NCBI GenBank assembly: GCA_963816185.1
Contig: CAWFJJ010000025.1
Location: forward strand, 544,001-608,000
DNA from: Thermoanaerobaculia bacterium
GTDB taxonomy: Bacteria; Acidobacteriota; Thermoanaerobaculia; UBA5066
Direction of reading: 5' to 3'
DNA length: 64,000 nt
Positions within the stretch are counted from its first letter, which is position 1, and every line of letters starts with the position of its first letter. The translations under genes and the position numbers were made by a program. Positions 2,400 through 10,674 of the stretch are shown here, one piece after another. The notes under the pieces are model-generated. The model did no database searches and was not told the DNA's origin. It saw only the letters and a program-made list of their open reading frames with translations.

Positions 2400-4172
2400 G
2401 TGCGCCGGATTCTCGCCCTCGTGGTCGTCCTCGCCGTGGCGGCCGGCGCCGTGGCGTGCAGCCTTCTCCTGAACGGAGAGAGCTCCCGGAGGAAGGACGT
2501 CACGGGCTCCCTGTTCACGGATGTCACGAAAGAGTCCGGAGTGCGCTTTCGGTTTCACGGCGACCTCATCGACGCCAAGCTGATCCCCACGATGGGCGGC
2601 GGCGCGGCGCTCGCGGACTTCGACGGAGACGGGAACCTCGATCTCGTCCTCGTCCAGCAAGTGAAGAGCGCCACGAAATGGCGGAAGGCGGGACGGACGC
2701 AGCCCCTGGCCGAGTGCACGCGCCTCTTCCGGAACCGCGGAGACGGGACGTTCGAGGACGTGACGGAGAGATCCGGCGTTGTCGCCTGCGGATGGGGCAT
2801 CACGGCGATGTGGGCCGACCTCGACAACGACGGCTTCCCGGACCTCGTCATCGGCAATGCCGGCGAGCAGAACCTCGTCTTCCGCAACAAGGGCGACGGG
2901 ACGTTCGAGAGGATGGAGAAGACGGGCCTCGAAGGCGGCAAGTTCACGGTCGGGCTTGCCGCCCTCGACATCGACGGGGACGGGCTCCCGGACGTCTACA
3001 TCGGGAACTACCTCGAGACGGACCCCGACCGCGAATCCAAAGCCAAGCCCACGTCCTTCATGACGCCCGACGAGTACAAGGGGCAGGACAACCAGATGCT
3101 GAGAAACCTCGGCGGCTGGAAATTCGCCGACGTGACCGACGCGAGCGGCACGAGGGATCCGGGCAGCAAGACGATCGGAGCCGTCGCGCTCGACTACGAC
3201 GGCGACGGAAGAACCGATCTTTACGTCTCGAACGACCAGTGGCGCAACACGCTCTTCCACAACGAGGGCGGCGGCCGGTTCCAGGACGTGTCGGACGAGA
3301 CGGGCACGGGCTATCCCGAGGAAGGCAGCACGACCGCTTTTGGGCGGAGGACGCGCAGCGGCATGGGGCTCGTCGCGGCGGACCTCGACGGCGACGGCCG
3401 GCCCGACCTCTACGTGACGAACTACGCGAACGAGCCGAACACCCTTTATCGAAACGTCGAGGGTGCGACGTTCGCGGAGAGCGAGGTCGAGGCGTTCGGG
3501 GGCGACCGCGATCCGGTCCTCCCGCTCTCGAAGTGGGGCGTCACGGCGCTCGACTTCGACAACGACGGCAGGGACGATCTCGCGGTCTCGAGCGGCCAGA
3601 TCCTCTCCCGCTTCTTCACGGTCCTTGCGGGGTGGTTCAATCCGGCGGGTCGGAACTTCGCCGTGGGCGAGAAGAGCTACGCGCAGCGGCAGTTCCTTTT
3701 CCGCAACGAAAGCGCGCCCGGGGCGATCAAGTTTCGCGACGTCTCGGCCCAGTCCGGCGACCTCGGCCGTCTGTGCGTGGTCGGGCGCGGGCTCTCGGCC
3801 GGCGACCTCGACGGCGACGGGAAAGAAGACCTCGTCTTTAACCCGATCGACGTGGCGGCCGTCGTCCTCCGCAACACGGCGCCGGGCGGGCGCGCACTGG
3901 AGATCCTGCCGGCCGTGGGCGCGGACCGCAGGACGGTCCTCGGGACGAAAATCACGGTCGGGGGGCGCGCGAAGGAGTTCTACGTCGTGCCGTCCTACGC
4001 GAGCGGTTCATGGTTGCCGCTTCACTTTGGGCTGGGAGAGGCGACCTCGGCGCGTGTGGCCGTACGGTGGCCGGACGGAACGGCGCAGGATCTCGGCGAG
4101 CTTCCCGCCGGCGCGTACAAGCTCGTGAAGGGCCTGGCGCCCGCCCCTCTCCGCGCGAAGCCGATGAAGTGA
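2400..4172 (+). CDS. CRTAC1-family FG-GAP repeat / ASPIC-UnbV exported protein
   Basis: N-terminal hydrophobic segment, repeated DFDGDGxxDL and FRNxGDGTFEDV motifs, C-terminal HFGLG...VRWPDG. Confidence 0.88.
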   Translation: MRRILALVVVLAVAAGAVACSLLLNGESSRRKDVTGSLFTDVTKESGVRFRFHGDLIDAKLIPTMGGGAALADFDGDGNLDLVLVQQVKSATKWRKAGRTQPLAECTRLFRNRGDGTFEDVTERSGVVACGWGITAMWADLDNDGFPDLVIGNAGEQNLVFRNKGDGTFERMEKTGLEGGKFTVGLAALDIDGDGLPDVYIGNYLETDPDRESKAKPTSFMTPDEYKGQDNQMLRNLGGWKFADVTDASGTRDPGSKTIGAVALDYDGDGRTDLYVSNDQWRNTLFHNEGGGRFQDVSDETGTGYPEEGSTTAFGRRTRSGMGLVAADLDGDGRPDLYVTNYANEPNTLYRNVEGATFAESEVEAFGGDRDPVLPLSKWGVTALDFDNDGRDDLAVSSGQILSRFFTVLAGWFNPAGRNFAVGEKSYAQRQFLFRNESAPGAIKFRDVSAQSGDLGRLCVVGRGLSAGDLDGDGKEDLVFNPIDVAAVVLRNTAPGGRALEILPAVGADRRTVLGTKITVGGRAKEFYVVPSYASGSWLPLHFGLGEATSARVAVRWPDGTAQDLGELPAGAYKLVKGLAPAPLRAKPMK

Positions 4173-4187: not shown

Positions 4188-4287
4188 GAAGGGGGCAGGG
4201 GGAAACGCGACCGTGTTTCCCCCATCACTCGCAGTCGCTGTAGCCCCCCTTCCTCGGTCAGACCGCGCAGCGGTTGGGGCTACAGCG
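4188..4287. terminator. Nested inverted repeats between convergent genes (bidirectional terminator or REP-like element)
   Basis: GGGGGAAAC 4198-4206 / GTTTCCCCC 4215-4223; CGCTGTAGCCCC 4236-4247 / GGGGCTACAGCG 4276-4287. Confidence 0.45.
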
Positions 4288-5188
4288 GCGTCACGTTGAC
4301 GTCTTCGCGCCGCGCGGCCGCCTCGGCCGCGGCCACGCTGATCGCATCGACGCCGTCCGCGCTCTTCAGGCTGCCGCGCGACATGCCGAAGGCCGCGAGG
4401 AGGTGACGCGGCGGCGCAAAGTCGAGGTCGGGCTCGTTCACGAAGAGGCGTCCGAGATTCTCGACGTAGGCCGACGTCAGCTCCTTCCAGGAGATCCGGT
4501 CGAACTCCTGCGCCACTTTTCGGCTTCCGAGGGACAGGAGGACGAGCGAGTGGAAGACCATCTGGTAGATGGCCTTCAGGCGCGCGCGGCTTCTCTCGGG
4601 GTGGTGCTTCAGGATCTCGCGGATGAAGTGCACGTTGAGCGGCACGTGGAACGACTCGTCCCGCGTGAGAATCGTGAGCACCTGCCGCGCGAGAGGCTGT
4701 TTCACACGCCGGAGCGACAGCCGGTACGTCGTGGCGCCGATCGTCTCGAACATGAGGTTCGTCAGCATGATCGATTCCATGCGCTCGGCCTTCGCGTAGG
4801 TCCTGTAGAACGAGCTGACCATCCAGCCCATCTCGGTCACGGCGCCGCCGATGTGCGCGAGGAACTCGTCGAGGAGCTCGCGGTGCCAGCCCTCCTCGTT
4901 GCCGTAGAGCACGAGGCACTCGGCGAGGTCGGGATCCCACGCCCGGACTTCCTCGGCGAGCCTGTGCGCGCCGGCCTTCCCCGACTCCTCGGCGCGATAC
5001 GCCGCGTTGAAGAAGCTGATGCAGGCGAGGCGCTCTTCCTCGGACTCGAACGCGACGGGTTTCGACAGGTCGAGGCGCTCGCCGTACATCCTCTCGGCGC
5101 GTTTCTTGAGCGTCTCGAGCCACCAGGCCGTCGGGCGCTGCGTCGGGATGCCGATGAGGGTGGAAACGGAGCCTTTCGCGAGCATCAC
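4280..5188 (-). CDS. Ferritin-like di-iron domain protein
   Basis: Carboxylate/ExxH pattern: AEES, NEEGWH, FETIG, RDESFH; helical protein. Confidence 0.75.
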   Translation of the reverse strand: MMLAKGSVSTLIGIPTQRPTAWWLETLKKRAERMYGERLDLSKPVAFESEEERLACISFFNAAYRAEESGKAGAHRLAEEVRAWDPDLAECLVLYGNEEGWHRELLDEFLAHIGGAVTEMGWMVSSFYRTYAKAERMESIMLTNLMFETIGATTYRLSLRRVKQPLARQVLTILTRDESFHVPLNVHFIREILKHHPERSRARLKAIYQMVFHSLVLLSLGSRKVAQEFDRISWKELTSAYVENLGRLFVNEPDLDFAPPRHLLAAFGMSRGSLKSADGVDAISVAAAEAAARREDVNVTPL

Positions 5189-5248: not shown

Positions 5249-5659
5249 TCAATGCGGCTCGACCCGGAGGTGGCCGGTGAGAACCTCGCGGCCGGGCACG
5301 AGCCGAATCTCGATGCGGAAGTCCTCGCCGGAAGAAGAGAGCCCGGGCAGGGTGAAGAAGAGGGGGAGGTTGAATCCCCGCCCGGGCTCCAGGCGGGTGG
5401 GATAGGCGAGCATCCGGCACTGGCGTGTCTGCCGGGAGCGCTCGCGGCCCTCCGAGTCGAGGAGGACCATCTCGAGGAGGGGACCCGCTTCCGTGGATCC
5501 CTCCCACGCTTGAAGGGTCTTGTTCCGGATTTCGAGGTGAAGGAGGACCTTGCCGGGCTCCGTCGCGCTCGGCACGACGACCGGCTGCGGCGCATGGAGC
5601 ATCAACGACAGCGTGACGTCGCCAGCCGGCTCTTCCTTCGGCAAGCTACTTCTCAGCAT
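5249..5659 (-). CDS. Hypothetical beta-sandwich protein, possibly BsuPI-like proteinase inhibitor
   Basis: SD AAGGAG upstream; LEIRN...VLLDSEGRE...LEPG pattern resembles BsuPI (family assignment is inference). Confidence 0.55.
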   Translation of the reverse strand: MLRSSLPKEEPAGDVTLSLMLHAPQPVVVPSATEPGKVLLHLEIRNKTLQAWEGSTEAGPLLEMVLLDSEGRERSRQTRQCRMLAYPTRLEPGRGFNLPLFFTLPGLSSSGEDFRIEIRLVPGREVLTGHLRVEPH

Positions 5660-5737
5660 GTCGGTGCTCCTTTCGAGCGAAACATTCCCCAGACGCCCCT
5701 TTGGCGTAGCTGGTTCGACAAACTATCCGTGGGCGTG

Positions 5738-5893
5738 TCAGCCGATGGGTCCGACGCTCGCCCCGATGGGTCCGACGCTTGCTCCGATGGGTCCGACGCT
5801 CGCTCCCGTTCCGCGATCGATATCGCGGGAACGCGCGAATCCGCCGAATTCGAAACCGGAGAAGACGTCAAAAAACGCAAAAAGAAACGCCAT
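5738..5893 (-). CDS. Small 51-aa precursor-like peptide MAFLFAFFDVFSGFEFGGFARSRDIDRGT(GASVGPI)x3G
   Basis: AGGAGG SD at 5898-5903 before ATG 5893; three identical heptapeptides ending at the TGA stop; differences between repeats are synonymous. Confidence 0.65.
   Translation of the reverse strand: MAFLFAFFDVFSGFEFGGFARSRDIDRGTGASVGPIGASVGPIGASVGPIG
5742..5804. repeat. Three tandem 21-bp repeats
   Basis: CCGATGGGTCCGACGCT(C/T)GC(C/T) x3, no spacers. Confidence 0.95.
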
Positions 5894-5987
5894 ACGTCCT
5901 CCTACCCCGATCCGGACAGGTGTGTATTTCTCCTGCCCTTCACCTAGTAGGACAGGGGACACGGGCCGTTTTGACCCCCGACGCTCG

Positions 5988-6017
5988 AAAAAACATCGGC
6001 CGCCCGAAGGCGGCCGA
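5988..6017 (-). terminator. Rho-independent terminator after the TPR gene
   Basis: Minus strand TCGGCCGCC-TTCG-GGCGGCCGA followed by TGTTTTTT. Confidence 0.85.
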
Positions 6018-6046
6018 GTGAATTCGCGACAGATCGGTGGCTGTGT

Positions 6047-7309
6047 CTAGCCGACGAGCCTCAGCGGGCGGTACGCACGTTTAACGCCATTCTCTTCGTT
6101 CTGCAGGTACTCGCGGACGTGCGCGATGAGGTCCGCGTCGATCGTGCCCTGATCGAGGCAGACGAAGAGTTCACCGAGAGCCGGCGACGGGGAGAAGCGA
6201 GAGTCGCGTCGATCGCGACGAATGCCATCGACCTCGGCGGCCATGGCGTTCAAATTGCCGAGATGGCCGAGGCACTCGGCGACATGCAGTCGTGCGAACA
6301 GGACTTCCATCGGCGATCCTGTGATTTCAGCCTCGCGCGCGATTTCTGCGAAAGCGCGCAGCGCCTGCTGGTAGCGCTCGCGACGAAAATCGAGTTCGGC
6401 GAGACCGTTTCGTACGAAGAAAACCGTCGACGTGAAGCCATGCTTTCGAGCGAGATTCAACGCACGTGCGAAACCCGCGCGCGCCTCTTCGAATCTCTCG
6501 AGCCGGGCGAGAGCGTTTGCCCGATTGTTGAGAGTCATGGCCAGCGGCTGTGCATCACACTCGGGATCGAACGCCTTAATCGCACGATCGAGCCGGGAGA
6601 GAGCTCTCAGGTCGTCACCGCGCTGCAGGAAGAGAGTCCCGAGAGCTGCCTCCGCACGGGCCACGAGATGATCCTGCCCGAACTCCGCAAAGGACGAAAG
6701 TGCGCTCTTGAGCTTCTTCTCCGCCGAGCCGTAGTCCTTTGCGAACCCGGCCGCCTGACCTTCATAGTAGTCGCACAGAGCCTGGCCGAACCCGAGGTCT
6801 CCCGACTGCCGGAAGAACTCTCGGGCCGGCTCGATCGCCGCTCGTGCGGAATCGGCCTCGCCGACCTGCAAAAAGGCGTGAGACCTGAGGATCATCGCTT
6901 CGGCTTGGACCGCCTGTCTTGGCGCCGGCGTCGTGAGTCGGGAGTCGCGATTCACATCGAGAAGAGAGGATGCTTCCGCGAGAAGCTCATCTGCGAAATG
7001 AAGTGCGACCCTTGGATTCTCGGAAACGAGCGGCCCCGCCTTCTGTGCCGCGTACAGCAGAGCAAAGCCCCGGTAGGGCTTGCCGTCCAGCGAGCGGAGC
7101 GCGGCCGCGAGTTCGTCGGCGCCGGACCGGGCGGCATTCAGGATCAGCTCGGCGGGCTTCTCGGCGTCCTGTGAAAGCTGGTAAATCTCTTCCACGGAAA
7201 CGCGAGCGTTGGCTCTCACGAAGGGGAGCGTGCGGCCCATGGCCTCGCGCGGCAGCTCGGGCACGAGCTCGCTCTCGAGGATCGCGTCGAAGACGTCATC
7301 CTTCTTCAC
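6047..7309 (-). CDS. Tetratricopeptide-repeat protein (about 420 aa)
   Basis: TPR helices such as LAMTLNNRANALARLERFEEARAGFARAL; GTG 7309 overlaps the upstream TGA (GTGA); more A/T-rich than its flanks. Confidence 0.85.
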   Translation of the reverse strand: MKKDDVFDAILESELVPELPREAMGRTLPFVRANARVSVEEIYQLSQDAEKPAELILNAARSGADELAAALRSLDGKPYRGFALLYAAQKAGPLVSENPRVALHFADELLAEASSLLDVNRDSRLTTPAPRQAVQAEAMILRSHAFLQVGEADSARAAIEPAREFFRQSGDLGFGQALCDYYEGQAAGFAKDYGSAEKKLKSALSSFAEFGQDHLVARAEAALGTLFLQRGDDLRALSRLDRAIKAFDPECDAQPLAMTLNNRANALARLERFEEARAGFARALNLARKHGFTSTVFFVRNGLAELDFRRERYQQALRAFAEIAREAEITGSPMEVLFARLHVAECLGHLGNLNAMAAEVDGIRRDRRDSRFSPSPALGELFVCLDQGTIDADLIAHVREYLQNEENGVKRAYRPLRLVG

Positions 7310-7794
7310 GGTCTCAGCCTCACGAGTCCGGCACGGAGGCGGTCCCACAGCGTGCGCCGGAAGGCGCGCATCGGCGCGGTCCTGGGAGACGCGGGCGCGG
7401 TCTCGACGCGGACCTCGATCTCGCCCGATTCCGCGAGCCTGAGATCGCGCACGACGAACGCAGGCCCGGAATCCCCGATGCCGCGTCTCTCACGCGCCTG
7501 GAGAAGGTTGTTGCACTGATTCAGGAACGCCGCGCGCAAGTACGCCTTCGGGTCGCGCACGCGCGGGTTCATCGCGAGCACCTTGAGGAAGACGGTCTGC
7601 GCGGCTCCCTCGCATTCGTCCTGCGTGAGGCCGAACCGGATGACGCCGGCCGCGATGAGGCGGGGGCGGAACTTCGCGTTCAGCTCCTCCCAGTTCCAGA
7701 CGGGCCGCGCGGGGGCAGTGACCTCGACCGGCGCGAACCGGGCGCGCTGCCTTTGCACCTCGTCGGGCGGAATCTCTACGAAGTTCCGGGACAT
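7306..7794 (-). CDS. ECF sigma region-2-like protein lacking a recognisable region 4
   Basis: WEELNAKFRPRL...ECEGAAQTVFLKVL...KAYLRAAFLNQCNNLL fits the sigma-2 pattern; no canonical HTH follows. Confidence 0.65.
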   Translation of the reverse strand: MSRNFVEIPPDEVQRQRARFAPVEVTAPARPVWNWEELNAKFRPRLIAAGVIRFGLTQDECEGAAQTVFLKVLAMNPRVRDPKAYLRAAFLNQCNNLLQARERRGIGDSGPAFVVRDLRLAESGEIEVRVETAPASPRTAPMRAFRRTLWDRLRAGLVRLRP

Positions 7795-7920
7795 CTTTCC
7801 CCTTACGAGAAGAGCCCTTATATGCTACGCCCGCTTTCCGGCAGGGGTCAACCGGAACCTCGCAGACAACCCTAATTCAACGCTAACGTCAGACATCCGG
7901 AATCAGAGGGGTGGGCTCGC

Positions 7921-10674
7921 ATGGCGACTAAGAAGAAGGCTAAAGCAGCACCGAGGAAGCTCGTTTACTCGTTCGGAGCGGGAGCTGCCGAGGGAAGAGG
8001 CAGGCAGAAGGACCTGCTCGGCGGCAAAGGGGCGAACCTGGCCGAGATGGGGCGGCTTGGCCTGCCGGTGCCCCCCGGCTTCACCATCACGACCGAGGTC
8101 TGCACCTTCTTCTACGACAACAAGAAGAGCTACCCCAAGGGTTTGCGCAAGGAGGTCGCGACCCACCTGAAGGGGATCGAGAAGAAGCTCGGACGCACCT
8201 TCGGGGACCCGAAGAACCCGCTGACGGTGTCCGTTCGATCGGGCGCGCGGGCATCCATGCCGGGCATGATGGACACGATCCTGAACCTCGGCCTGAATGA
8301 CGAGACGGTCGAAGGTTTGGCGCAAGTCTCGAAGACCCCCCGCTTCGCCTGGGACTGCTACCGGCGGTTCGTGGCGATGTACGGAGACGTCGTTCTCGAG
8401 CTGAAACCGCTTGACAGGCACGAGCGGGACCCGTTCGAGGTCATCCTCGAGAAGAAAAAGAGCGCCTACAAGGTAAACCTCGACATGGAGCTCCCGGTGC
8501 AAGCCCTCCGGGAGCTCGTGCGCGAGTTCAAGGCCGAGATCAAGAAGCGTACCGGGAAGACCTTCCCGGACGATCCTCTCGAGCAGCTCTGGGGCGCGAT
8601 TGGCGCCGTGTTCGGCTCCTGGATGAACGACCGCGCGAAGGTCTACCGGCAGCTCAACGGAATTCCGGAGAGCTGGGGCACCGCGGTGACCGTCCAGTCG
8701 ATGGTGTTCGGCAATCTCGGCGGCGACTGCGGAACGGGCGTCGCGTTCACGCGCGACCCCGCGTCGGGGGAGAACGTCTTCTACGGCGAGTACCTGATCA
8801 ACGCGCAGGGCGAGGATGTCGTGGCCGGCGTGCGCACGCCGCAGAAGATCGCGACGCTCGGCAGGAAGATGCCGAAGGTCTACGCGGAACTGCTCGGCAT
8901 CCGGAAGACGCTCGAGGACCACTACGGCGACATGCAGGACATCGAGTTCACGGTGGAGGCCGGGAAGCTCTGGATGCTCCAGACGCGGACCGGCAAGCGC
9001 ACGGGCTTCGCGGAGGTGCGCATCGCCGTCGAGATGGTCGAGGAGAAGCGCATCACGCCCGAGCAGGCCGTCCTGCGCGTGAACCCCGACTCTCTGAACC
9101 AGCTTCTCAGGCCGATCTTCGATCCGGCCGCGAAGGCCGAGGCGATGGGCGCCGGCCAGTTTCTCGCGAAGGGTCTCAACGCCGGGCCGGGCGCCGCCAC
9201 GGGGCGCGCCGTCTTCACGGCGCTCGACGCCTTCGAGTGGGCCGAACGCGGCGAGAAGGTGCTCCTCGTACGCGAGGAGACGAGCCCCGAGGACATCAAA
9301 GGCATGAACGCGGCGGAGGGCGTCCTCACGGCGCGCGGCGGCATGACGTCTCACGCCGCGCTCGTCGCGAGGCAGATGGGCAAGGTGTGCATCGTGGGCT
9401 GCGAGACCCTGCGGATCGACGCGCAGCAGCGCCTCATGACGATCGCCTCGCCCGGCGCGAAAGAGCCGCGCATCGTCCACGAGGGCGACTGGCTCTCCAT
9501 CGACGGCTCGACGGGCGAGGTCATCGAGGGCCGCATCGGGACGAAGCCGTCCGAGGTCCTGCAGGTCATCCTCGACCGCTCCCTCGATCCGAAGAAGAGC
9601 GAGGTCTACCGGCGCTACGCGACGCTCATGAAGTGGGCGGACAAGGCTCGGCGCCTGAAGGTGCGCGCGAACGCCGACCAGCCGGACCAGGCCACGAACG
9701 CCGTCGCGTTCGGGGCCGAAGGCATCGGCCTCTGCCGCACGGAGCACATGTTCTTCGGCGGCGAGCGCATCACGGCGATGCGCGAGATGATCCTCGCGGA
9801 CAAGACCGAGGACCGCGAGCGTGCGCTCGACAAGATCCTCCCCATGCAGCGCGAGGACTTCGTCGGCCTGTTCCGCGCGATGGGGCCGCGCCCGGTGACG
9901 ATCCGGACGCTCGACCCGCCGCTCCACGAGTTCCTTCCGCACGGCGAGAAGGAGCGCGAGAGCGTGGCGCGCCAGGCCGGCGTCGACCCGCGCACCGTGG
10001 CGCGCAAGGTGGCCGAGCTGCACGAGATGAACCCGATGCTCGGGCACCGCGGCTGCCGCTTGGGCATCTCGTTTCCCGAGATCACCCGCATGCAGACGCG
10101 CGCGATCCTCGAGGCCGCGTGCCGCGTCAAGAAGGAAGGCATCGACGTGAGGCCCGAGATCATGATTCCACTCGTCGGCCACGTGAACGAGCTGGCCGAC
10201 CAGGCGAAGATCGTGCGCGACACCGCGAAGAAAGTCTTCGAGGCGGAAGGGATCAAGGTGAGCTTCCTTCTCGGCACGATGATCGAGCTGCCGCGCGCGG
10301 CGGTCACGGCGGACGAGATCGCTCGGGAGGCCGAGTTCTTCAGCTTCGGGACGAACGACCTCACGCAGACGACGTTCGGGCTCTCGCGGGACGACGCGGG
10401 CAAGTTCCTGCCCGAGTACGTGCGGCGCGAGATCCTGCCCGCCGATCCCTTCGAGAGGCTCGACCAGATCGGCGTCGGCAAGCTCATGAAGATGGCCGTC
10501 GAGCTGGGGCGCTCGACGCGCCCGGATATGCACCTCGGGATTTGCGGCGAGCACGGCGGCGACCCGTCCAGCGTGGAGTTCTGTCACCGCATCGGCCTCG
10601 ACTACGTGTCCTGCTCGCCGTTTCGCATCCCGATCGCCCGGCTGGCCGCGGCGCAGGCGGCGCTGAGGAAGTGA
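7921..10674 (+). CDS. ppdK: Pyruvate, phosphate dikinase
   Basis: [26 protein letters not shown] phospho-His motif, [10 protein letters not shown]; 917 aa. Confidence 0.98.

Follow-up and report, generated by a model that had tools for sequence, protein, structure and literature searches.

The DNA analysed here, referred to as the window, is a stretch of 64,000 nucleotides on contig C25 of the 5.09-Mb assembly of a Thermoanaerobaculia bacterium (Acidobacteriota), whose own genome is labelled G000 below. Its minus strand carries a module of four open reading frames (ORFs), in the order sigma-like gene, tetratricopeptide repeat (TPR) gene, small ORF and beta-sandwich gene, together with a terminator on the same strand. 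The small ORF is genuine as a gene and is linked to the TPR gene across the family. The reading preferred here, to which we give a rough probability of 0.5, is that its peptide product is the cognate ligand of the TPR sensor and closes a regulatory loop that may act between cells. This reading is favoured because peptide and TPR types diversify together, because the repeats multiply an identical unit and because the C-terminal motif alone spans peptide versions of 10 to 56 aa.

In its full form, the module would comprise an extracytoplasmic function (ECF) sigma factor, a translationally coupled cytoplasmic anti-sigma factor with ZAS-like and TPR parts, and a separately transcribed tiny gene. 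It is proposed that the peptide, or its C-terminal unit once freed by proteolysis, binds the TPR domain and that TPR occupancy alters the hold of the anti-sigma factor on the sigma factor. Since the peptide gene lies behind what appears to be the module's own promoter motif, an autoregulatory loop would be closed. A peptide that left the cell would turn this loop into a quorum-sensing circuit with strain-specific peptide types. The anatomy, conservation, coding status, co-variation and cassette-like history of the module are observed, whereas binding, processing, export, the sign of the feedback and the dependence of the promoter on a sigma factor are the parts of this scheme that we infer. 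The module of the window is itself a derived form that has lost sigma region 4 and the ZAS-like part but has retained sigma region 2, the TPR domain, the promoter motif and the peptide gene under selection. A full-length sigma factor from a paralogous module probably acts on its promoter, and the sigma region 2/TPR pair would then be a peptide-binding modulator.

The elements listed in an earlier note on this DNA are each present: the minus-strand layout, a 420-aa TPR protein coupled to the sigma-like ORF by a GTGA overlap, a UUCG-loop terminator, an AGGAGG sequence with a 51-aa ORF that ends in three repeats, and a beta-sandwich protein. The 51-aa product has a conserved F-rich N-terminus (MAFLFAFFDVF), a variable linker and three copies of ASVGPIG followed directly by the stop codon. 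In the ORF frame, the repeat copies of the window differ at synonymous third positions only. Pairwise comparison of the units in the 12 of 20 loci with repeated units gave 80 synonymous against 14 non-synonymous codon differences. The gene order is kept in all 11 same-genus loci first fetched. Ten of these loci span the DNA from the TPR to the beta-sandwich gene, and the small ORF is present in each; its product starts with M-(D/E)-F-L-F-A-F-F and has one to three units at its C-terminus (for example, ISSTPIG, IGVGPIS, SGYGPIN or RIGPIGG). Five further metagenome peptides with an ASVGPIG core have a constant N-terminus and core and a variable linker.

For a wider survey, TPR 3' ends were pooled from three collections of genome and metagenome contigs, giving 108 distinct ends, 93 of which have at least 300 nt downstream. 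A small ORF was accepted if it was preceded by a Shine-Dalgarno (SD) sequence, was 9-80 aa long and carried the family C-terminal motif. As the earlier note had expected, TPR homologues are followed by short ORFs whose conserved C-terminal motif is present one to four times, namely behind 71 of the 93 distinct ends; the same rule accepted 47 of 4000 random 450-nt windows of the own genome. The proportion differs between classes: 39/39 for orthologues, 20/24 for C28-type paralogues (named after a second contig of the genome, see below), 1/13 for second convergent copies and 11/17 for genes cut by a locus edge. The small ORF is frameshifted or read through in at least four loci (L056, L080, L084 and L086). 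The family unit can be written as one to four copies of x3-4-(G/S/T)-P-(I/V)-x1-2 before the stop, and the C-terminal (G/S/T)-P-(I/V)-x motif is the sole element conserved across the whole length range. The TPR homologues are labelled as Thermoanaerobaculia or Acidobacteriota metagenome-assembled genomes.

Receptor/peptide co-variation, also anticipated in the earlier note, is observed: the peptide unit co-varies with the TPR domain. Across 20 distinct loci of the orthologous group, the TPR protein has a mean distance of 0.39, the beta-sandwich protein 0.25 and sigma region 2 0.21. With beta-sandwich distance partialled out, heptapeptide distance in these 20 loci tracks that of the TPR protein (partial Mantel r 0.75, p 2e-4); with TPR distance partialled out, it tracks neither beta-sandwich nor sigma distance. 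A second, paralogous set of 12 loci, with sigma factors 82-97% identical and TPR proteins 50-93% identical, gives r 0.37 (p 0.004) for peptide against TPR given sigma. The signal is located in TPR residues ~100-380. Indeed, across 43 pairs the peptide follows the central TPR part (residues 101-380) given the TPR N-terminus (r 0.31, p 3e-4), with r 0.01 for the reverse.

The variable part of the locus behaves as a cassette. In L008, the beta-sandwich gene is 98% identical to that of the window and the TPR N-terminus is window-like, while TPR residues 100-380 and the peptide (ending DRTGPIGG) belong to a short-peptide clade. Synonymous divergence of the central TPR part is 1.5-2.6 in nine of ten pairs, against 0.2-0.5 for sigma region 2; in the tenth pair, L004/L005, of common peptide type, it is 1.0. 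Between the window and its neighbours of the truncated type, the corresponding values are 1.6-2.6 and 0.27-0.45. This deep synonymous divergence indicates that the cassette holds old exchanged types and is not the product of fast positive selection.

The sigma-like gene of the window is a reduced one. Its TGA stop shares bases with the GTG start of the TPR ORF, and the same GTGA overlap occurs in the C28 paralogue. The protein matched no Pfam family, and its sole NCBIfam match is SigX4 (E 0.004, residues 42-104). The likeness to sigma region 2 put forward in the earlier note, weak when taken alone, is secured by the 80% identity of residues 1-104 to the 188-aa sigma factor of L006, which passes the NCBIfam ECF model TIGR02937. 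Of the four full-length sigma factors tested against this model (cut-off 42.9 bits), L006 (46.9), L034 (50.8) and L043 (48.2) pass and L042 (42.4) misses by 0.5. Full-length sigma factors have Pfam matches to regions 2 and 4, both sub-threshold, and are found in the C28 and C5 modules of the own genome, in the sister genus and in part of the window's genus. The window's own copy, judged by the presence of regions 2 and 4 and by the family model, falls outside the ECF factors, and its 58-aa tail has no detectable similarity to region 4.

Three states are seen among orthologues: a 188-aa sigma with the region 4 helix-turn-helix (HTH) and a long TPR protein (L006, L007, L011, L012); a 159-162-aa sigma with a tail other than region 4 and a 417-420-aa TPR protein without the ZAS-like part (the window, L002, L004, L005, L008); and a sigma of ~100 aa (L009, L010). 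The 'half sigma' of the earlier note is not an original design. Comparison with L006 shows a derived state, a secondary loss of region 4 from an ordinary ECF sigma factor, because residues 1-104 match at 80% and the remainder cannot be aligned. It could be supposed that the loss went further and that the module is a decaying remnant, whose sigma-like and TPR genes regulate nothing while the peptide and beta-sandwich genes work under a paralogous sigma factor. The sigma tail, with its ratio of non-synonymous to synonymous substitution (dN/dS) of 0.29-1.17 and lack of region 4 similarity, would fit such decay, as would the missing ZAS-like part, the even shorter ~100-aa sigma of other species and the presence of a full-length C28 paralogue with the same promoter halves. 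However, among five truncated-type loci, region 2 (dN/dS 0.09-0.24) and the three TPR segments (0.07-0.26) are still under purifying selection, so that the sigma/TPR pair as a whole has not decayed; the frames are intact, the GTGA coupling is retained and the truncated form is common to many species of the genus. That the module of the window is a decaying remnant is for these reasons unlikely.

The TPR protein is assigned to TPR families by Pfam, which gave no match for the other three module ORFs. Its AlphaFold2 (AF2) model is an all-helical, continuous superhelix of ~9 helix pairs (mean predicted confidence, pLDDT, 87.8), with residues 13-34 disordered. The top Foldseek matches of this model in the PDB are TPRs that bind peptides in extended form (LGN/Pins, KLC1), and several Rap receptors follow at ranks 29-49. 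A profile search against the PDB retrieved RapF and RapJ with E 2e-4, ranked below many generic TPRs. Since generic TPRs score higher, a specific homology to the RRNPP receptors is not demonstrated. No HTH or Rap-type effector domain was found in the protein with Pfam or NCBIfam, and its sequence has no evident signal or membrane segment. Weak matches to the NCBIfam HaaT model, by this protein (E 6e-5) and by the neighbouring di-iron protein (E 0.002), were treated as noise.

Long-form TPR partners of 460-485 aa begin at the GTGA overlap with the sigma stop and carry an N-terminal H-x3/4-C-x2-C motif, a type known from zinc-binding anti-sigma domains. The window protein has neither this ZAS-like part nor an H-x3-C-x2-C motif. 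Judged by the sequences of these relatives, it is a homologue of proteins that resemble anti-sigma factors in position and build, minus the ZAS-like part. The suggestion in the earlier note that the TPR protein controls its sigma partner fits this relationship.

The peptide gene appears to have a promoter of its own. The motif GGGGGTCAAA-N14-15-TGTC lies 5' of the peptide gene in both orthologous and paralogous modules, 67-89 nt past the TPR stop in most loci, and is followed by a leader of ~100 nt. In alignment A4, the GGGGTCAAA and TGTC columns are invariant or nearly so. Within the own genome, the full motif is limited to the window, the C28 paralogue, which has two copies, and two or three other, uncertain places; a GGGGTCAAA-type motif is absent 5' of the window's sigma-like gene. 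The GTC core of its second half is reminiscent of ECF -10 elements, and we infer that the motif is the module's own ECF-type promoter. Upstream, the TPR terminator (6017-5996) has nine pairs, eight of them G-C, a TTCG loop and the tail TGTTTTTTCG; its stem is kept in 15 of the 17 loci of A4, the exceptions being the sister-genus rows L055 and L062. On inspection, the arms of the leader hairpin appear to change together in L005, L008 and L009. A hairpin equivalent to that at 5693-5707 is found in relatives with different loops, and paralogous loci have a full terminator in its place. A search of Rfam with positions 5600-6100 returned nothing near the gathering score.

Other occurrences of the motif were noted. 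In many C28-type loci, a second GGGGGTCAAAG...CTGTC..TACTAATAGCCCAC copy is located 300-380 nt past the first (L042, at ~7341 or ~179341 of C28 in G000; L072, L074, L076, L083 and L086). This copy is not followed by a conserved ORF, and in L042 and L076 it is directed towards a convergent gene, into its 3' end. A small or antisense RNA dependent on the sigma factor may be transcribed from it. C28-type loci also share a conserved GGGTACCTCAAAA-AATCTTT element ~25-30 nt 5' of each GGGGGTCAAAG motif. In sequence it is similar to the motif's first half, so that a tandem site is possible, as is an upstream element. A partial motif, GGGGTCAAAC...CTTGTCC, at ~3109 of contig C6 in G000 (L091) precedes an SD sequence and an ORF whose Cys-rich product has a signal-like N-terminus; this gene may be a further target of the module sigma factors.

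The own genome holds three sigma/TPR pairs, in the window and on contigs C28 and C5, each with its own downstream peptide. The peptides end in VSTTTIGG x2, SIKPIGG and, in the window, ASVGPIG x3; that of the C28 module is MDFDFGFGSFLYFIDWFGFGSSAESVSTTTIGGNKVSTTTIGG and that of the C5 module MDATTLIDLALSLLGLTTTDTTDPTDGTDRSIKPIGG. Neither the C28 nor the C5 module has a beta-sandwich or di-iron gene. Elsewhere, C28-type peptides are mostly 19-21 aa long, for example MFETLFALFFDCCRGTGPIGG, and in C28-type loci the peptide ORF has its own terminator and no same-strand gene downstream. The short C28-type peptides (L067-L083, L149-L167) very often have CC or CxxC just before the (G/S/T)-P-I-x-G end, as in ...DCCRGTGPIGG or ...FCDRCIGTNPIQG, a feature suggestive of metal binding, lipidation or cross-linking. 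In the C5 module, the TPR gene (G000 C5 37288-38449, L043) matches as two pieces in different frames, reflecting either a frameshift or an assembly error, and a histidine kinase gene follows its peptide gene.

The paralogues bear on a cis-acting role for the small ORF, as a leader peptide tuning the beta-sandwich gene in an attenuation-like manner. The Phe-rich N-terminus MAFLFAFFDVF is reminiscent of phe leader peptides, and a hairpin separates the ORF from the beta-sandwich gene. However, C28-type peptide genes end in a terminator with no same-strand gene to tune, the conserved and repeated part is the C-terminal unit and not the Phe codons, and the 10-aa versions have no Phe run. The idea, highly improbable on these grounds, was dropped.

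The family extends beyond the genus without leaving the order. Among 301 sampled genomes of the phylum, nine match the C28 anti-sigma at E <= 1e-8, and the strong matches come from two families of one order. Distant relatives in this order have a short ORF 3' of the TPR gene that ends in GPIPA, GPVPE, SPIPI or TPVPA. Very different peptide genes follow the TPR gene in L088 (G035:C19), L089 (G027:C1), L090 (G029:C3) and L087 (G033:C1). Among these four are one of 82 aa with a signal-peptide-like N-terminus and the end HGPVPE, one of 19 aa ending in GPIPA and two 10-aa ORFs, MDRIMSPIPI and MNAENTPVPA. As far as sequence comparison goes, the family would be a set of lineage-specific three-part modules in one order of Thermoanaerobaculia. 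In some species, a second, convergent pair of full ECF sigma and ZAS-TPR genes flanks the peptide and beta-sandwich genes (for example, L170, G023:C6:94400-98000, and L171, G018:C252:12000-15600). From residue 39 onwards, the TPR protein of this second pair shares ~60% identity with the first; 12 of 13 such copies have no peptide gene of their own.

The leader and repeated-core build of the longer peptides invites another explanation, in which the peptide is an output only: secreted, membrane-active, or the precursor of a ribosomally synthesized and post-translationally modified peptide (RiPP) with enzymes encoded elsewhere. The TPR protein would then sense something else or, in the manner of lantibiotic autoinduction, the mature product, and the co-variation would reflect cassette linkage. 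The constant N-terminus, variable linker and invariant core of same-core peptides agree with such a precursor, as do the CC or CxxC of many short forms and, in the window's genus, the di-iron and beta-sandwich genes 3' of the peptide gene. Hitch-hiking is also conceivable, because the peptide gene adjoins the variable TPR part. On the other hand, no candidate for a modifying enzyme is common to the family and the C28 and C5 modules have none. The lack of a common enzyme makes a RiPP cluster improbable. Moreover, nothing lies downstream of the C28-type peptide gene beyond its own terminator, the sister-genus di-iron gene is 2-3 kb off or was not found in the locus, and the 10-aa ORFs of distant relatives are leaderless. 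A conserved TPR tail, spacer and peptide N-terminus separate the variable parts, yet the association persists in two paralogous groups. An output-only role is therefore rather doubtful, and the reading of the peptide as a TPR ligand is retained.

Several points nevertheless weigh against the ligand reading. The co-variation is statistical and not strict, the related loci are non-independent, and close linkage alone could yield part of the signal. Identical heptapeptides occur with central TPR identities as low as 58-65%. In the metagenome contig L103, the peptide is of the MGVGPIS type although the central TPR part is 97% identical to that of the ISSMPIG type; the contig is either a recombinant that arose in nature or a chimera assembled through the strongly conserved spacer. 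Among the second-copy TPR genes, 12 of 13 lack an intact peptide ORF downstream, as do 4 of 24 paralogues. A complex prediction for the TPR protein (alignment A2) with the 51-aa peptide, run without controls, scored 0.01 against a mark of 0.32 and has no bearing on binding in either direction. In the window, the loss of region 4 and of the ZAS-like part rules out the canonical anti-sigma mechanism. In the relatives, Pfam zf-HC2 is not significant on six long-form TPR proteins (best E 9.7, in one of the six), so the ZAS assignment rests on motif and position. ECF promoters have a spacer of 16-17 nt, and that of the motif is shorter. In agreement with the earlier note, which had seen no classic Sec signal, the window peptide has no Sec-like N-terminus; no export signal is recognisable in it, its N-terminus being hydrophobic but acidic, and no transporter or processing protease is linked to any module. 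Finally, four RNA libraries of relatives (three studies) contain contigs of 88-99% likeness over the leader and the beta-sandwich gene and over portions of the di-iron and sigma genes, and one 768-nt contig runs from the TPR 3' end through a divergent peptide region into the beta-sandwich gene. The libraries come from relatives and not from this strain, gaps over the TPR gene at 88% likeness are uninformative, and DNA carry-over is possible, so this cover is a weak hint of transcription.

For action of the loop between cells, the observations point both ways. Pherotype-like diversity and one relative with a signal-bearing peptide favour it; the leaderless 10-aa forms and the absence of a linked exporter disfavour it. 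A more far-reaching version, which we regard as tentative and less probable than the ligand reading itself, would be that Thermoanaerobaculia signal from cell to cell with strain-specific ribosomal peptides that are read by a cytoplasmic TPR anti-sigma factor, with output through an ECF sigma factor; this would be a quorum-sensing family of a Gram-negative phylum with an origin separate from that of RRNPP systems. Its types would be long-lived and cassette-exchanged, and pairs reduced to sigma region 2 only and TPR only would be extra receptors or decoys.

The peptide quorum sensing systems of the RRNPP/RRNPPA group of Firmicutes include Rgg/SHP, ComR/ComS, PlcR/PapR, AimR/AimP and Rap/Phr. 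Like them, the module has a cytoplasmic TPR-type receptor and an adjacent tiny gene with a conserved C-terminal end and a proposed promoter of its own, and receptor and peptide diversify together. The short forms, of 18-21 aa with a hydrophobic N-terminus, are in the style of SHP and ComS. Unlike these systems, the module has no HTH or Rap effector domain and its output would pass through an ECF sigma/anti-sigma pair; it also lacks a Sec-type signal, belongs to a Gram-negative phylum and repeats identical units in one precursor. The RRNPP analogy drawn in the earlier note therefore holds for the way of working, with a TPR receptor and an adjacent peptide gene, and not for descent, there being no effector domain or demonstrable homology. 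The module is not an RRNPP member, and works like Rgg/SHP or ComR/ComS (for RRNPP/RRNPPA quorum sensing, see the available text of PMC10075063 and PMC13361665). Leaderless communication peptides, according to the available text on RopB (PMC10518010), are very short translated signals that need no leader removal. The 10-aa ORFs of the distant relatives would fit this type, although receptor type, phylum and peptide motif differ. The 19-aa PepX of S. venezuelae, as presented in the available text of PMC11256431, is unrelated.

The coupled genes, the cytoplasmic anti-sigma factor and the H-x3/4-C-x2-C N-terminus of the relatives recall ECF sigma factors with cytoplasmic ZAS anti-sigma factors. 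Such pairs are known from SigR/RsrA and SigE/ChrR. In contrast to these, the sensor is a TPR protein of ~400 aa, the conserved target is the downstream peptide gene and not the sigma operon, and the window copy is without region 4 and the ZAS part. A ribosomal peptide that feeds back on a sigma/anti-sigma pair driving its own gene has a precedent in microbisporicin, a lantibiotic with autoinduction via the ECF sigma factor MibX and the anti-sigma factor MibW. There, however, the anti-sigma factor is a membrane protein, the peptide is heavily modified and the genes belong to a large biosynthetic cluster, whereas no enzymes are linked here. The two-subunit sigma factor SigO-RsoA of Bacillus is a precedent for sigma function in a protein with part of the sigma domains; unlike that case, no partner supplying region 4 was found here, and the state of the window is a secondary loss. 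In the available text of the ECF reclassification (PMC7826278), TPRs are limited to an extension fused to ECF42 and to a FecR-like protein of ECF267, and no group with a TPR anti-sigma factor and a peptide is mentioned. The literature covered, which is partial, yielded no TPR anti-sigma factor with a cognate peptide and no peptide signalling in Thermoanaerobaculia.

The coordinates of the module and of its surroundings are collected in the table.

Table. Features of the module and of the neighbouring DNA in the window, with strand and the basis of each assignment.
Feature	Positions	Strand	Basis and remarks
Sigma-like ORF, 162 aa	7306-7794	-	truncated ECF-type: region 2 (~residues 35-104) and 58-aa tail
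TPR ORF, 420 aa, cytoplasmic, proposed peptide sensor	6047-7309	-	Pfam TPR_12, E 7e-12
Intrinsic terminator 3' of TPR gene	5996-6017	-	UUCG loop, T run to ~5986
Bipartite promoter-like motif GGGGGTCAAAAC-N13-CTGTCC, proposed ECF-dependent	5950-5979	-	conservation
Leader hairpin GGGCAGG...CCTGTCC in 5' untranslated region	5914-5938	-	read from sequence; arms appear to co-change in relatives
Peptide gene, 51 aa; SD AGGAGG 5898-5903, ATG 5893	5738-5893	-	ORF list, conservation
21-bp tandem repeat, 3.1 copies, coding for the heptapeptide repeat	5742-5808	.	Tandem Repeats Finder, score 111, 89% matches
GC hairpin 3' of peptide stop, without T run	5693-5707	-	read from sequence
Beta-sandwich protein, 136 aa, distantly BsuPI-like	5249-5659	-	AF2 model, weak homology
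Ferritin-like di-iron protein, 302 aa, conserved neighbour	4280-5188	-	weak AurF match, Atlas clusters
Candidate sigma-70-like promoter TTGACC-18-TAGCAT 5' of sigma-like gene	7822-7851	-	consensus scan, pattern match only
FG-GAP/ASPIC repeat protein, convergent with di-iron gene	2400-4172	+	Pfam FG-GAP_3, E 5e-51
917-aa ORF, pyruvate phosphate dikinase by eye, divergent from sigma gene	7921-10674	+	read by eye

The protein encoded behind the peptide gene is an all-beta sandwich in its AF2 model (pLDDT 85.4). Three weak lines connect it with the intracellular proteinase inhibitor BsuPI (PDB 3isy): a phmmer E of 0.015, a Foldseek match at rank 27 (TM-scores TMq 0.56 and TMt 0.64) and Atlas matches of which 18 of 30 fall in BsuPI clusters (score 0.92). 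It has no Pfam match, the BsuPI family being PF12690, and may be distantly BsuPI-like. The protein is 80-98% identical across the genus and belongs to a small family of 36 clusters restricted to this clade; its gene is probably co-transcribed with the peptide gene. Second copies of the beta-sandwich gene occur at other places of the genome in the sister genus (L035, L036, L039, L040) without TPR, sigma or peptide genes, behind a different conserved element, ...CGACAGATTTC...TTTTTGTCGGAA....

The 302-aa protein matches AurF at E 0.0037, below the cut-off, and has Atlas matches to FA_desaturase_2, AurF and rubrerythrin clusters (0.92-0.97). Its gene comes next in all four of the first-fetched same-genus loci long enough to reach that point. 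In the sister genus, it is ~2-3 kb away or was not found within the locus, and the di-iron protein is probably outside the module. The dikinase gene lies divergently upstream in both the window and the sister genus, which indicates that the module occupies a stable chromosomal place and not a recent island. The A/T-richness of the block claimed in the earlier note is borne out in part, as a modest dip, GC being 0.61-0.63 over 5501-7000 against 0.66-0.70 on either side. The start of the dikinase gene (7751-8750) is equally low.

Peptide signalling via cytoplasmic TPR receptors is generally attributed to Firmicutes and to the phages of these bacteria, and the role assigned to ECF sigma/anti-sigma pairs is the sensing of envelope or redox stress. 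The family described here has several modules per genome and pherotype-like peptide/receptor types, and its conserved class of 10-56-aa genes is overlooked by gene callers. If the proposed reading is true, these modules would be a source of small and mutually orthogonal parts (peptides, sensors, sigma factors and promoters) open to direct testing with synthetic peptides. They would also represent a new input class for ECF signalling and extend peptide communication to a Gram-negative phylum, in uncultured soil Acidobacteriota.

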